Assembly: GCA_964521645.1 (NCBI GenBank)
Contig: CAZFSB010000003.1
Span: forward strand, 1 to 51,705
Direction: 5' to 3'
DNA length: 51,705 bases
Source of the DNA: an uncultured Candidatus Saccharibacteria bacterium
GTDB taxonomy: Bacteria; Patescibacteriota; Minisyncoccia; Phycocordibacterales; UBA918
Each line of letters begins with the position of its first letter. Positions within the stretch are counted from its first letter, which is position 1. The notes under the pieces are model-generated. The model was not told the origin of the DNA and did no database searches. It worked only from the letters and a program-made list of their open reading frames with translations. A program made the translations under genes and the position numbers. Below, one piece after another: positions 3,533-34,945 of this stretch.

Positions 3533-3605
3533 AGCCGTCTCCGAGGATCGAACTCGGGACCTTAGCGTTACGAATGCTACGCTCTACCAACTGAGCTAAG
3601 ACGGC
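3533..3605 (-). tRNA. tRNA-Thr (anticodon CGU)
   Basis: The reverse strand GCCGTCTTAGCTCAGTTGGTAGAGCGTAGCATTCGTAACGCTAAGGTCCCGAGTTCGATCCTCGGAGACGGCT folds as a cloverleaf. The anticodon loop is TTCGTAA. Confidence 0.9.
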
Positions 3606-3632
3606 TTACGGTGCACCATTGTATGTAATCCC

Positions 3633-5925: not shown

Positions 5926-6225
5926 TGGTTGCGGGGCCCGGAATCGAACCGGGGTCTGGAGGTTATGCGTACCACTATAACTTTCGTTACTCAAGCCTTG
6001 CTTGATTTGTTGGTCTGGACTATACCTTCATCTGTCTCTTTCGAGCGAAGATGCCTACCATCTAGTCTCTACACCTTCCCGCCACTGGCGGGCTTGGCTC
6101 GGTATTGCCATGTTCTCCTTTTGCAAGCGAACGAAGGTTTCACCGAATTTGGCAAGTGTTCCATAAAACATTTCTGTAGTATGAGCCCTCTTGAGCCTCC
6201 CGAGGTACCTCTCCTCTACCCCGCT
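5926..6225 (-). tRNA. Initiator tRNA-fMet (CAU) interrupted by a group I intron; exons 6225-6194 and 5967-5926; CCA encoded
   Basis: The exons join into a 74-nt cloverleaf, AGCGGGGTAGAGGAGAGGTACCTCGGGAGGCT|CATAACCTCCAGACCCCGGTTCGATTCCGGGCCCCGCAACCA. It has A11:U24 and a 1x72 mismatch, and its 3' end is as in E. coli fMet. Confidence 0.85.
5968..6193 (-). ncRNA. Group I intron (IC3-like), 226 nt, inserted after U33 of tRNA-fMet
   Basis: Contains CAAATTCGGTGAAACC, ATGGCAATACCGAGCCAAGCC, GAAGGTGTAGAGACTAGATGG and GAAGGTATAGTCC core strings. It is preceded by U and ends in G. Confidence 0.8.
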
Positions 6226-6304: not shown

Positions 6305-6928
6305 CTACAAAACCCCTAATTCAGCGAAAACTCGTTGGTAGCGAGCGATAGTGTCTTGTGCAATGCGTCTGGTGAGCACAAAATCTGCCCCGTCGTGGGC
6401 GATCCGATTGCGCACCTTATGGGCTTCCCAAGCGTCCTGAAGGGTGTTGAGTTGTTGGACTGAAACGTTCTTGAGTCGCTCCCCGAGCGAAGCTCCTGGA
6501 AATCCTTTTTGCTTGAGAGCTTCTTCTAAAATGATATCCGCTTCAATGATGGCCAGTTTCCAGTCGTTCGGATTATCAGAAGTGGAGTGCGTGAGTACGT
6601 CCTGTAATCGAGTACTTCGAACCACTCCCCGAAACTGCTCATCATAGAGACGTTCGGCATCACGGAGCATTTGCGTCTGCAGACCAGCGTACAAGTTTTT
6701 CTTTGTCGAAGCATACACGTACAAGAACAAAAGAATGATGGCGAAAATATATGCCAATACTGTGTAGATAGACCAGAGTGTCCCGAGAAAAGCGAGGATC
6801 GCAGTAAAAGAGAATACTGTAGCAAAACCACCAAACAGATCGCCAAACACTGAATCGGACCCGACAGAAACTCCGGGCATAGTTGGTCCTGAAGGGTTCG
6901 TTGGTGCAGGGGTGATGACTGGTTCCAT
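6305..6928 (-). CDS. Hypothetical membrane protein (207 aa)
   Basis: Two TM helices followed by a soluble domain. It starts 6 nt after the gatA stop, so is probably co-transcribed. Confidence 0.6.
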   Translation of the reverse strand: MEPVITPAPTNPSGPTMPGVSVGSDSVFGDLFGGFATVFSFTAILAFLGTLWSIYTVLAYIFAIILLFLYVYASTKKNLYAGLQTQMLRDAERLYDEQFRGVVRSTRLQDVLTHSTSDNPNDWKLAIIEADIILEEALKQKGFPGASLGERLKNVSVQQLNTLQDAWEAHKVRNRIAHDGADFVLTRRIAQDTIARYQRVFAELGVL

Positions 6929-33369: not shown

Positions 33370-33691
33370 TAAGATCGGTTTGAAGTGGGGAGCACCACAT
33401 CAGGTGGTAAGCTTCTCTAGTCCACAGTATGGACACGGGCCCACCTAAGATATTCACCTCCTTTCAGGATGAAAAGCGTATGGTCATGACGGAACTTCCG
33501 GCGACTGAGCGATTACCCAAAATGAGTTTCATCACATTTCTCCTGAATTGGTTGTAGGTGACGAATGTTCACCCACTTACAGTAATACCGAAAAGTTAGC
33601 AGTTTGTAAATATCCCTCGGTGCAAACGTGGCTCCGGGGAGATTGAGACAACGGGCTGATTGCGCTATAGTGTCACACACCAACCAAATTT

Positions 33692-33726
33692 CCGCCTATA
33701 GCTCAGTTGGTAGAGCGCAGAGCTTA
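33692..33726 (+). pseudogene. Orphan 5' half of tRNA-Ile (ends inside the anticodon)
   Basis: 34/35 identical to 33803-33837. Identity stops after CTTA of the anticodon loop, and no matching 3' half follows. Confidence 0.6.
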
Positions 33727-33802
33727 CAGAATGAGCTGAGTGGAGAAAGAATTTATTCTTTCGAGTCACGAAGCGATATTCTGTATCAATTAAATCTTTT
33801 GT

Positions 33803-33875
33803 CCGCCAATAGCTCAGTTGGTAGAGCGCAGAGCTTATACCTCTGTGGTCCTTGGTTCGAGTCCAAGTTGGCGGA
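33803..33875 (+). tRNA. tRNA-Ile (anticodon UAU)
   Basis: CCGCCAATAGCTCAGTTGGTAGAGCGCAGAGCTTATACCTCTGTGGTCCTTGGTTCGAGTCCAAGTTGGCGGA folds as a cloverleaf. The anticodon loop is CTTATAC. Confidence 0.85.
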
Positions 33876-33892
33876 CAAAAGATTGAATTAGA

Positions 33893-33990
33893 TATACCTC
33901 TGTGGTCCCTGGTTCGCACCACAAGGGTATTTCCGAATTTATAGTCGGCTCATCGCCTCCTTAAATTCTAGGTCAATCCAAGTTGGCGGA
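33893..33990 (+). pseudogene. Orphan 3' half of tRNA-Ile with a 59-nt insertion in the T loop
   Basis: TATACCTCTGTGGTCCCTGGTTCG[59 nt]ATCCAAGTTGGCGGA. A further partial copy follows at 34008-34023. Confidence 0.55.
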
Positions 33991-34078
33991 CAAAAGATTG
34001 AATTAGATATACCCCTGCGGTCCATAAAGAAAAACAGTGCCTGCGCACTGTTTTTCCTTGGATTTTTGAAGCGGTCGG

Positions 34079-34945
34079 TTAGTTACCAAACAACCAACCC
34101 AAGAGTCCCCAACGGCCGATCGCCTTTTCTGCGACCTGGTCCAGTCGCTCTTGTTCTTGCAGCATTGTCTGCACTTGCTCTTCTAGCATTGTGCGCACTT
34201 CCTGGTCACACCCCTCGCACTCTGCTAAAAGTTGGTTCATTTCTTGGACACGAAGTCGATTCTGCTCTGCCTCATCTTTCAGGGCCTCTGCTTGCTCCTG
34301 ATCTTGACCAAAGAAGAAGGCTCGTAACCAACTGCGCTTTTCCAAAGCTTCCTCACGTCGCTCCATACCCTGGGCAGCTTGGTTCACCTGCTCGGCCATC
34401 TCACTCATCTGTGGTCCTTTTGGTCCGAGCATATCCTCGGCTGCTTGTACTGCCTGCACGGCAACCTGAGCCCGCTCACGCAGTGGGGTTCCCTCTTCAC
34501 CATTCTCTGCCCGCTGTGTTTGGGTTTGCACGCGCTCTTGTATGAATTGCTTAAGCTCATCAGGGGTCTGTACTCGCTCCTGCACCCGGGCTCGCTCCTG
34601 TTGCGCCAGTTCGCCACCAGCATTCTGCCCTGACGAAGCCTGTCCCCCGATCTGCTGACCATTAAGCGATGCCTGGTCTTGCTGCTGCACCTGCTCCATG
34701 GTCTGCTGACGCTGCTGTTCCTGCGTCTGTACAGCAGCATTTCCGGCCGCAGTGGTAGAACCAACTCCAGTCGGTTGATTGGTTCGGTCCTGGTCTTGGG
34801 CCTGGTTGCGATCTTGATCAGCGGTTGCACTACCACCCACATTTCGTTCTTGCTGCGCGTACGCAGCTGTCGCCAAAAGCATTACCGCTAGTAACGCGAT
34901 CATTTCAGCAATGACGACGAGTGTCATTTTTTTAGTCATACTCAT
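34079..34945 (-). CDS. Secreted Gln/Glu-rich coiled-coil hypothetical protein
   Basis: Signal/anchor sequence MTLVVIAEMIALLAVMLLATAAYA, followed by a low-complexity Q/E-rich region. Confidence 0.6.
   Translation of the reverse strand: MSMTKKMTLVVIAEMIALLAVMLLATAAYAQQERNVGGSATADQDRNQAQDQDRTNQPTGVGSTTAAGNAAVQTQEQQRQQTMEQVQQQDQASLNGQQIGGQASSGQNAGGELAQQERARVQERVQTPDELKQFIQERVQTQTQRAENGEEGTPLRERAQVAVQAVQAAEDMLGPKGPQMSEMAEQVNQAAQGMERREEALEKRSWLRAFFFGQDQEQAEALKDEAEQNRLRVQEMNQLLAECEGCDQEVRTMLEEQVQTMLQEQERLDQVAEKAIGRWGLLGWLFGN

Follow-up and report, generated by a model that had tools for sequence, protein, structure and literature searches.

A tRNA-Ile(UAU) gene nested between the halves of a putative predecessor in a Saccharibacteria genome

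How does one tRNA gene come to lie among pieces of itself? In the window analysed here, a 51,705-nt stretch of DNA from an uncultured Candidatus Saccharibacteria bacterium, a first-pass annotation had recognised one intact tRNA-Ile(UAU) gene together with orphan pieces of the same tRNA, and ARAGORN, Rfam and repeat alignment found all of the elements that it had listed (Table 1). Upstream, the annotated 35-nt copy of the 5' half (33692-33726) matched tRNA positions 1-35 at 34 of 35 residues and was separated from the intact gene by the 76-nt spacer described (33727-33802). The acceptor strand reads CCGCCTA in this outer 5' pseudo-half and CCGCCAA in the intact gene, and the weak Rfam tRNA match (33692-33744, 15.7 bits) fits a fragment. 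The intact gene scored 70.6 bits against RF00005 at 33803-33875 compared to a gathering score of 29. Downstream, both of the annotated copies beginning at T34 were found. The stretch 33836-33859 recurs at 33893-33916 with 96% identity, and 33862-33908 recurs at 33977-34023, again with 96% identity, the first 37 nt (33862-33898 and 33977-34013) being exact. These downstream units, each a 3' half plus trailer, are 57 nt long, and the last of them, the truncated unit 3, is possibly what is left of the resident gene's own 3' half. TRF called no tandem array at the locus because there are only ~2.3 units, one of them interrupted.

Table 1. Positions of the features of the tRNA-Ile(UAU) locus within the window.
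Feature	Position	Strand	Remarks
Promoter-like TTGAGA-17-TATAGT	33643..33671	+	10/12 match; ~20 nt 5' of the outer 5' pseudo-half
Outer 5' pseudo-half	33692..33725	+	tRNA positions 1-34 of the putative older resident tRNA-Ile(UAU)
Stem-loop A	33726..33784	+	insert module 1; long hairpin with imperfect pairing, closed by ACAGAAT/ATTCTGT; 59 nt
Helix B, 5' arm ATCAATTAAATCTTTTGT	33785..33802	+	pairs with the trailer; lengthens the acceptor stem of the intact tRNA
Intact tRNA-Ile(UAU), anticodon TAT	33803..33875	+	ARAGORN (33803-33876); Rfam; CCA not encoded
Helix B, 3' arm ACAAAAGATTGAATTAGAT	33875..33893	+	outward from the discriminator; ends together with the 168-nt insert
3' pseudo-half unit 2, first part	33894..33916	+	tRNA positions 35-57 (ATACC...GGTTCG); 96% repeat
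58-nt structured element	33917..33974	+	in the T loop after G57 (GGTTCG); box CACCACAAGrGTAyTTCC, covarying hairpin, then TAGGTC
3' pseudo-half unit 2, second part	33975..34008	+	tRNA positions 58-73, plus second 18-nt trailer copy (helix B 3' arm)
Unit 3 ATACCCCTGCGGTCC	34009..34023	+	truncated and diverged 3' piece, tRNA positions 35-49
Intrinsic terminator hairpin with T tract	34029..34056	+	12-pair stem; ends the transcription unit

A single promoter and a single terminator enclose the whole locus. Transcription had been predicted from a TATAGT box, and TTGAGA-17-TATAGT is the sole promoter-like site on the plus strand of the locus, with the box at 33666-33671 rather than at the annotated 33667-33672. 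Congeners have a TATAGT box at equal spacing before their outer 5' half or simple gene. Folding of the whole RNA gave an MFE of -135 kcal/mol (z = -6.4), and the modules folded as predicted.

The pieces fit together when the two breakpoints annotated in the anticodon loop are read as both edges of one nested insertion. The insert is 168 nt long (33726-33893), sits at CTT^ATACC between U34 and A35, and consists of two abutting stem-loops. The second of these is a leader-trailer helix of 22-26 bp (helix B) with the intact tRNA-Ile(UAU) as its tip. A 22-nt inverted repeat of 95% complementarity (33788-33809 with 33868-33889, and again with 33983-34004) lengthens the acceptor stem by 14-15 pairs, ~19 counting ATC/GAT; the annotated helix extension was thus found, at 15 further pairs. 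Helix B pairing reached 15.0 of 18 with its own partner compared to 10.5 ± 0.4 when partners were shuffled; many pairs were flipped, and the -1:73 T-A and -2:74 G-C pairs were invariant across 31 loci. The helix was present in every locus that has a 5' half (mean extension 12.3 vs 4.2 pairs). Such a helix could also arise without selection, if the acceptor-stem palindrome were extended by templating. An extended acceptor helix as a genome-wide habit was ruled out, since only 2-3 of the 34 tRNAs of this genome have one (Ile, Thr(UGU) and Gln).

In bacterial rRNA operons, leader-trailer processing stems are substrates of RNase III. Helix B resembles them in that a stable RNA is enclosed by a long duplex of 5' leader and 3' trailer, in that compensatory changes have preserved this duplex, and in that the genome encodes RNase III with a dsRBD (C6:4644-5366) as well as RnpA (signature and Pfam). 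With a duplex of at least ~20 bp, compensatory change and an RNase III gene all found, cleavage of helix B by RNase III is predicted. It differs from the rRNA stems in enclosing one tRNA, whose acceptor stem it directly continues through the -1:73 and -2:74 pairs. Stem-loop A, the other module of the insert, forms in both the MFE and the centroid fold, and congeners have an equivalent hairpin at the same junction. Its covariation looked convincing by eye but was not significant against a matched-search null (5.71 vs 5.08 ± 1.13 of 8).

We then turn to the genus, where the nested layout was seen at ~20 of 65 mapped loci, single-contig genomes (G069, G070) included. The annotated breakpoints in the anticodon and T loops proved to be conserved in relatives, with ends at tRNA position 35 upstream (1-35) and starts at 34/35 downstream (34/35-end) recurring in ~20 independent assemblies of a genus whose divergence is deep (RecG as low as ~66-70% identical). 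Chance is thereby ruled out as a source of the pieces, and the refuting condition that the annotation had set, partial copies with breakpoints shared by no relative, did not hold. HlyD-neighbour phylogeny was too short and divergent and RecG was used instead; on this single-gene quick tree of 55 genomes the nested state was patchy, with at least 12 state changes, a pattern that can also stem from many losses. Many species have simple genes, and sister species differ in nested versus simple state. The two closest relatives, G000 and G067 (RecG 93-94% identical), have the inner gene and the 3' element in common, and their stem-loop A and helix B sequences are unrelated.

The outer halves bear on the order of events. 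The outer 5' half directly follows the promoter in congeners, and the outer 3' half is followed by the terminator, as in simple genes (G013); in G019 and G090 a CCA is also encoded after the outer 3' half. The outer 5' and 3' acceptor strands are complementary to each other at 7 of 7 positions in G019, G119, G045, G079 and G052, with compensated differences from the inner gene. Because the outer halves of at least five species pair with themselves and differ from the inner gene by compensated pairs, the inner copy appears to have arrived later than the outer halves. G009 has as its functional allele the one found in the outer 3' half of G090. About half of the nested loci show no difference between outer and inner alleles, which would fit local duplication or gene conversion as well as arrival from outside. 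In many species, this one included, the outer halves have indels, truncations and insertions of 55-105 nt, and they appear to be dead, decaying copies.

The inner gene was always present wherever the locus was assembled. A tRNA-Ile(UAU) match was obtained in 113 of 128 genus genomes; the gene was present in all fetched loci and is conserved over genus and order. In ten genus genomes without a strong match, either the gene was intact but divergent (G068, G086, G046) or the contig ended next to RecG. TilS (TIGR02432) was not found in this 98%-complete genome, in which the controls were positive, leaving no evident TilS/tRNA-Ile2(CAU) route, so that the intact tRNA-Ile(UAU) is probably its only AUA decoder and likely essential. 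TilS-independent AUA decoding by tRNA-Ile(UAU) has been described in Mycoplasma mobile (PMC3575796), where the UAU anticodon is likewise genomically encoded and a tilS gene was likewise not found. That work covers decoding; a nested gene architecture like the present one is not described there.

The T-loop interruption is of another kind. The first-pass annotation placed it correctly, directly after GGTTCG, at a length of 59 nt; the inserted segment measures 58 nt (33917-33974), and after it stands AA in place of the AG of the intact gene. It lies there without duplication of tRNA sequence, and the closest relative, G067, has the identical element at the same T-loop site. Ten congeners also have a T-loop element insertion in their 3' pseudo-half. 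When the inserts were sought elsewhere in this genome, as the annotation had proposed, the 58-nt element had five to six other copies and stem-loop A had none. Elements of ~55-58 nt of this type are widespread in Patescibacteria, with an invariant 18-nt box common to CPR phyla and a consensus fold of 14 compensated pairs forming one internal hairpin, not two subterminal ones. The T-loop breakpoint, annotated as a crossover site, is therefore better read as the insertion of a dispersed CPR-wide element, and the statement that no element is present gives way to one of small non-coding stem-loop elements. The base before the element is G in 30 of 54 copies, and TCG precedes it in 12 of 54. A preference for hairpin loops, apparent in 4 of the 6 copies here, was rejected as a rule, as 54 CPR copies compared in strict register showed no significant excess (3.85 vs 3.59 of 10). 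No known Rfam family matched the spacer or the 58-nt element, and our literature search found no description of this CPR element.

REP/REPIN sequences and the IS200/IS605-derived PATE elements are moved by Y1 (HUH) transposases, and this genome encodes such an enzyme (C35:637-1359, PF01797, 59-61 bits), the gene being without flanking copies of the ~55-58-nt element. Hairpin elements are also known from organelle genomes, as the RHE of sponge mitochondria (PMC2800124). With all of these the 58-nt element shares a short, structured, non-coding, multi-copy and intergenic character and a frequent position inside or beside other hairpins and tRNA ends, and a Y1-family gene is present here. Unlike REP/REPIN and PATE, it has neither terminal inverted repeats nor a palindromic REP shape; it has the invariant CPR box, and its target motif seems to amount to a bias.

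The Ile locus has counterparts in the same genome. The tRNA-Gln gene is nested at the D loop and has its own clamp helix, and the tRNA-Thr(UGU) gene has 3' copies starting at position 37. The layout of a gene inside its own putative predecessor recurs both over the genus and at other tRNA genes. Our literature search found no description of nested tRNA genes. A related case is the E. coli tyrT locus, where Egan and Landy in 1978 reportedly described downstream 178-bp units, each repeating the tRNA 3' end. There as here, units of tRNA 3' portion and trailer stand head to tail downstream of the gene, in numbers that vary by lineage. The present units differ in that they start in the anticodon (34/35), measure 57-60 nt and are joined with an upstream 5' half and a clamp helix, and in that one of them is split by a foreign element.

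In our view the locus probably arose when a nested insertion replaced the gene, with later duplication, gene conversion and decay. The 168-nt non-coding insert would have split a resident tRNA-Ile(UAU) gene between U34 and A35, leaving it its promoter and terminator, and the second stem-loop of the insert would have carried at its tip a whole tRNA-Ile(UAU) as replacement. What was left of the old gene would be flanking pseudo-halves, decaying or homogenised by gene conversion. Later in this lineage, the 57-nt unit of 3' half plus trailer may have been duplicated, and the CPR-wide ~58-nt element may have entered the T loop of the middle unit. A single transcript is expected to run from about 33679 to the terminator. 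In it, helix B would make the halves of the intact gene pair together and not with the homologous pseudo-halves, and would offer an RNase III substrate; RNase P, 3' trimming and CCA addition would complete the tRNA, and the remaining pieces would be discarded. Movement or exchange between species appears to involve either the insert or the nested locus as a whole, the most economical route being homologous recombination with the tRNA halves as arms. Its first origin was probably a loop-directed insertion process, because the tRNA-Gln and tRNA-Thr nests also break in loops.

A purely local origin would do without a mobile insert. Replication slippage or template switching at the cloverleaf palindromes would have made tandem and inverted partial copies; vertical descent from the ancestor of the genus, gene conversion with the functional copy and frequent loss by direct-repeat recombination would account for the rest. 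The number of 57-60-nt units indeed varies (G069 has three, all exact; G005 and G058 have two), the 37-nt repeat in G000 is exact, outer and inner alleles are the same in G005, G069, G100, G083, G093, G070 and G014, easy loss through direct repeats can account for the patchy tree, and the helix B arms are mutual inverted copies adjoining a natural palindrome. We nevertheless consider this origin unlikely, because frozen pseudogene pieces cannot gain compensated changes, whereas the outer acceptor pairs are self-consistent and stand one to three compensated pairs off the inner gene while the remaining half sequence is near-identical. A tandem model would also need three copies and two precise deletions to place promoter and terminator on the outer pieces, and would have to accommodate two closest relatives that differ wholly in stem-loop A and helix B. 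The opposite emphasis, on function, takes the whole composite as a selected precursor in which the pseudo-halves act as an outer tRNA-like scaffold or as decoys that recruit or titrate processing enzymes, anticodon nucleases or IleRS, with stem-loop A as a protein-binding leader. Breakpoints kept over so divergent a genus, outer halves that are intact and mutually complementary in several species, and the strong stabilisation of the whole RNA fold agree with this. The simple genes of many species, the differing states of sister species, the decay of outer halves here and elsewhere and the lack of significant covariation in stem-loop A make it very unlikely. That the structure is a collapsed or chimeric repeat has hardly any probability: the genome is a 57-contig MAG and contigs of G126, G089, G065 and G109 break at the locus, but the architecture is common to ~20 independent assemblies, single-contig ones among them, and G067 has the same 58-nt element at the same site.

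Integration scars were the reading that the first-pass annotation had leaned to, in the form of tyrosine-integrase crossovers. Integrase sublocations in tRNA and tmRNA genes, reported by Williams in NAR in 2002, are said to be the anticodon loop, the T loop and the 3' end, and CIMEs of ICESt1 stand alongside genomic islands and prophages as a class of elements integrated in tRNA genes. As in these, a loop of a tRNA gene is struck, the incoming DNA restores the gene and the displaced part stays as a direct repeat. The locus would then hold scars of tyrosine or large serine integrase integration, the tRNA-bearing elements having since been deleted to stubs, miniature CIME-like remnants. Such scars would account for breakpoints in both loops; at least 12 of 36 tRNA genes here are followed, 120-190 nt downstream, by a direct repeat of their 3' end, a classical att footprint; a large serine recombinase, at C13:1110-2651, abuts tRNA-Glu; and TA...TA module flanks would suit a 2-bp crossover. 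The loop positions thus stand, and the crossover reading as such seems distinctly unlikely. An att crossover yields two chimeric genes or a 3' repeat only, not a 5' orphan with a complete inner gene; both orphans are present here, which makes the structure a nested one. At the T loop a dispersed element was inserted, and no tRNA sequence was duplicated. Perfect stem-loops of 57-170 nt, and not the remnants of islands, make up the intervening segments; in contrast to islands and CIMEs the insert is non-coding and brings a whole tRNA, not a 3' part only. No cognate integrase was found among the genome's recombinases: its only two PF00589 proteins (328 and 323 aa) are Xer-type and on other contigs, with no integrase near the locus. 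The TA flanks are not repeated at the tRNA-Gln nest. An IS630/Tc1-type MITE, as a possible source of the stem-loop modules, would be expected to show a TA target duplication and conserved terminal inverted repeats; TA flanks can be read at every insert module, where they are hard to separate from the TAT anticodon and from closing T-A pairs, and the insert arms covary instead of staying the same. A site-specific recombinase may act in trans, and a large serine recombinase and a Y1/HUH enzyme are encoded elsewhere in the genome. Phages were rejected as a vehicle: the junction pattern in viral contigs occurred only as chance matches inside protein genes, with no nested locus there, and where phages carry a tRNA-Ile(UAU) gene, it is un-nested and its acceptor stem is unrelated.

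Nested replacement of the resident gene, the reading that we prefer, has a wider form, which we hold as a tentative possibility. Tiny stem-loop cassettes, non-autonomous and each with a complete replacement tRNA at its tip and a clamp helix, may exist as a class in CPR bacteria; they would insert in the D, anticodon or T loop of a resident homologue, take over its essential function and spread between species, the insertion following a loop-directed chemistry not yet described, e.g. an HUH or serine recombinase acting on folded DNA. Mobile DNA classically lands in tRNA genes, and by the known logic the 3' end of the gene is regenerated by a large, integrase-bearing element. The present locus would be this logic in miniature and nested form, with a 168-nt insert bringing a whole tRNA into the gene that it replaces. 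If mobile, the insert would be a minimal 'addictive' element and a new route for the exchange of essential RNA genes between species with tiny genomes. Such nests break MAG assemblies at tRNA loci and can mislead both tRNA annotation and island finders based on att sites. With its covarying leader-trailer helix, the locus lends itself to a test of whether RNase III assists tRNA maturation in CPR bacteria.

Splicing of the outer halves was also considered and rejected. Intron-containing, split and permuted tRNA genes are known from Archaea and red algae, with BHB introns at non-canonical positions and split tRNAs in Nanoarchaeum and Caldivirga, and they share with the present locus a loop interruption whose intervening sequence folds into helices that unite the halves. 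Unlike in those cases, the splicing endonuclease EndA (PF01974) was not found in the genome, no BHB pairing was visible at the junctions, and a complete inner gene supplies the function. The outer halves decay and are therefore taken not to be spliced into a tRNA. None of the 10 genus genomes without a strong match had an 'interrupted-only' gene, and Rfam gave no intron match at E <= 10 in 33550-34150. That the group I search works is shown by a true group I intron that was detected elsewhere in the window.

The nested tRNA-Ile(UAU) locus, in which an intact inner gene lies inside the 5' and 3' halves of a probably older, interrupted copy, is real and conserved. The repeats listed by the first-pass annotation all exist in the window: an upstream copy of the 5' half (33692-33726, 34/35 identical), a 76-nt spacer, an intact tRNA-Ile gene (Rfam tRNA score 70.6 bits) whose acceptor-helix extension is due to a 22-nt inverted repeat, two 3' copies beginning at T34 (33893 and 34008), an exact 37-nt repeat and a T-loop insertion directly after GGTTCG. 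The TATAGT box is also present, shifted by one base to 33666-33671; together with TTGAGA, it forms the sole promoter-like site on this strand at the locus. What did not stand was the description of the locus as scrambled, as the pieces fall into order once the locus is compared with 64 others from the genus. With the intact anticodon loop CTTATACC as reference, the sequence here reads CTT (33723-33725), a 168-nt insert (33726-33893) and ATACC (from 33894). Two directly adjoining stem-loops, stem-loop A and helix B, make up the whole insert, and the predicted fold of the whole unit contains both modules (MFE -135 kcal/mol, z = -6.4). Because the apparent covariation of stem-loop A was not significant against a matched-search null (5.71 vs 5.08 ± 1.13 of 8), our claim is limited to its presence and carries no structural statement.

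Features of the tRNA-Ile locus and candidate enzyme genes of the host genome (C-numbers are its contigs)
Feature	Location	Strand	Details
Stem-loop A	33726-33784		closing stem ACAGAAT/ATTCTGT
Helix B	arms 33785-33802 and 33875-33893		ATC...GAT; intact tRNA at tip
T-loop element copy	33917-33974		58 nt; other family copies on C6, C16, C21, C31, C38
Terminator	34029-34056		single, downstream of all pieces
Large serine recombinase	C13:1110-2651	+	513 aa; Resolvase, Recombinase and Zn-ribbon
Y1/HUH gene	C35:637-1359	+	single; 240 aa; IS200-like, RAYT-like

An alternative layout was found in six congeners (G052, G079, G012, G126, G063 and G014), where stem-loop A encloses the tRNA and an empty mini-hairpin, ATCGAAGAT, takes the place of the second stem-loop; G005 carries both forms in tandem. 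The spacing from the promoter to the outer 5' half is always that of a simple gene. The terminator lies 3' of the outer 3' half, and G019 and G090 additionally encode a CCA after that half; the simple G013 gene has the same arrangement. This attachment of promoter, terminator and CCA to the outer pieces argues that these probably represent the original gene, into which everything else was inserted. Another kind of upstream nest was seen at loci L061 (G057), L014 (G021), L029 (G022) and L034/L035, where tRNA positions 1-9 alone are copied (CCGCCTGTA) and lead into a hairpin with which the copies pair; in G057, a ~80-nt unit of this kind is tandemly repeated before tRNA-Ile.

In many species the outer halves carry indels, truncations and foreign insertions. 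The intact inner gene is always there wherever the locus is assembled, and genomes that seemed to miss it have divergent intact genes or contigs ending beside RecG. Searches for a splicing endonuclease and a group I core found neither. In G019, G119, G045, G079 and G052, the acceptor strand of the outer 5' half is complementary at every position to that of the outer 3' half, yet one to three compensated pairs set the two apart from the inner gene, to which the remainder of the outer halves is nearly identical; the outer 3' half of G090 ends ...CACGCCCACCA, the allele functioning in G009. To our knowledge, compensated pairs cannot evolve in pseudogene pieces, which argues that the outer gene was probably functional when it acquired its allele and that the inner copy would be later or from elsewhere. 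Outer and inner alleles are the same in G005, G069, G100, G083, G093, G070 and G014 and near-identical in the host; at all these loci, gene conversion or a recent local event is equally possible.

The locus is best read as gene replacement through nested insertion into the anticodon loop; later steps would be duplication of a unit, gene conversion, insertion of a secondary element, and decay. The first-pass annotation had likened the breakpoints in the anticodon and T loops to integrase crossovers. The logic of that idea, a gene restored by insertion, holds up; the anatomy does not. The T-loop breakpoint reflects insertion of a multi-copy element into dead DNA and no crossover. Ten congeners carry this element at the matching T-loop position of their 3' pseudo-half, and the same junction occurs in a record labelled Candidatus Kaiserbacteria. 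The element comprises an invariant 18-nt box (CACCACAAGrGTAyTTCC), a hairpin and TAGGTC, in that order; its consensus fold has 14 compensated pairs, and no Rfam family matched it. The box occurs in Saccharibacteria, Paceibacterota/Parcubacteria, Kaiserbacteria, Nomurabacteria and further CPR genomes. Inverted repeats flank four of the six copies in the host, and outside this genome the element abuts tRNA ends. In a set of 54 copies, the base before the element is usually G, TCG is the commonest triplet and flank pairing was non-significant. A second, conserved family of T-loop insertions, ~105 nt long, is found at GGT^TCGAG in the 3' pseudo-half of other congeners. Its members, at L012 (G015), L020 (G010), L013 (G020), L254 (G126) and L055 (G092), start with GAGAAATGGG... 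or GAGGAAGCG... and end with ...CTGTA[AT]GAT, which is similar to the right-hand terminus (..TGTATCGAAGAT) of the insert in the anticodon loop. Two host loci, on C30 (~6607-6667, -) and C34 (~3568-3628, -), start with the element's box (CACCCCAAGGGTACTTCC) and go on with a different GC-rich sequence, AAyGGCT..GCC.AAGGGGCG; judged by this sequence, they may belong to a related family.

As candidate enzymes the host encodes a single Y1/HUH protein, a single large serine recombinase and two Xer-type recombinases, none of them near tRNA-Ile or linkable to the insert. The serine recombinase frame runs into tRNA-Glu(CTC) (c[2614,2688], opposite strand) and may mark an integrated element there. No copy of the 55-nt element flanks the Y1/HUH gene, which is followed by two small ORFs.

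Helix B is present at every locus of the genus that has a 5' pseudo-half (mean extension 12.3 vs 4.2 pairs). Across 31 loci, 15.0 of 18 arm positions paired with their own partner, compared to 10.5 ± 0.4 with another species' partner (maximum 11.9 in 2000 shuffles). TA/AT/GC flips occur at many positions, and the pairs -1:73 (T-A) and -2:74 (G-C) are invariant. Among 34 host tRNAs tested, only three show a leader-trailer helix: tRNA-Ile, tRNA-Thr(UGU) and, in weaker form, tRNA-Gln. We infer that this covarying clamp serves maturation of the functional copy: it would hold the functional halves together despite homologous pseudo-halves in the same transcript, and RNase III would then open it. 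The host encodes RNase III (with dsRBD) and RNase P protein. Both the insertion mechanism and these RNA-processing steps are our inference.

RecG is syntenic with the locus, and a 55-genome RecG tree requires at least 12 changes between the nested and non-nested states, with sister species often differing. The host and its closest relative, G067 (RecG 93-94% identical), have the inner gene in common and an identical 58-nt T-loop element; their stem-loop A sequences are unrelated, as are their helix B sequences. G019 has the stem-loop type of the host with a different inner allele. Such a mosaic of inner genes, stem-loops and elements would be consistent with recombinational exchange, for which the tRNA halves (~35-40 bp each) could plausibly serve as homology arms; this would also explain why recipients retain their own acceptor ends. 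No nested locus was found on viral contigs. In eight genomes (G058, G092, G007, G105, G106, G120, G096 and G086), RecG matched in two pieces that separate near residue 335 and lie in a single open frame of ~775-815 aa, implying a probable in-frame insertion of ~40-60 aa or an intein-like segment.

The host genome (0.96 Mb, 57 contigs, ~98% complete; congeners 0.5-1.2 Mb), of which the window is contig C3, has 36 tRNAs by ARAGORN, and tRNA-Ile(TAT) at 33803-33876 is the sole candidate AUA reader. The TilS model had no match in this genome and was positive in 14/14 control genomes; AUA decoding by tRNA-Ile(UAU) without TilS has a precedent in Mycoplasma mobile (PMC3575796).

Related nests at tRNA-Gln and loop-start copies at tRNA-Thr extend the phenomenon within this genome beyond tRNA-Ile. 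The nested layout recurs at tRNA-Gln(CUG) (C20 c[3771,3842]), where the D loop is the interrupted site and the intact gene has a clamp helix of its own. tRNA-Thr(UGU) (C6 c[29053,29126]) has two downstream 3' copies, both from position 37 in the anticodon loop. For at least 12 of the host's 36 tRNA genes, the gene's 3' end recurs as a direct copy 120-190 nt downstream. Because the breaks fall in loops, a process acting on folded nucleic acid is suggested.

At tRNA-Gln, positions 1-20 are copied 65-85 nt upstream and positions 20-56 are copied 52-88 nt downstream, and the clamp of the intact gene is formed by the inverted repeats AAAAGAGTGATTTCAA / TTGAAATCACTCTTTT. The tRNA-Thr copies cover positions 37-74 (at +153) and 37-53 (at +221), and its leader-trailer helix is 14 bp. 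The tRNAs with downstream 3'-end copies include Leu-CAG, Met, Ser-GCT, Ser-GGA, Ser-CGA, His, Cys, Leu-TAA and Val-GAC; the copied stretch starts either at T-loop positions 51-57 or at positions 66-70, and an inverted copy often separates it from the gene. Elsewhere in the window (5950-6225, -), a group I intron (Rfam, 6001-6203, 54 bits) lies within the anticodon loop of an initiator-type tRNA(CAU), which has an A1xA72 mismatch, and ends ...GCAACCA with CCA encoded. Behind this gene lie a terminator and its 3' end copied in inverted orientation. ARAGORN detects the gene only in intron mode and mislabels it Leu(caa).
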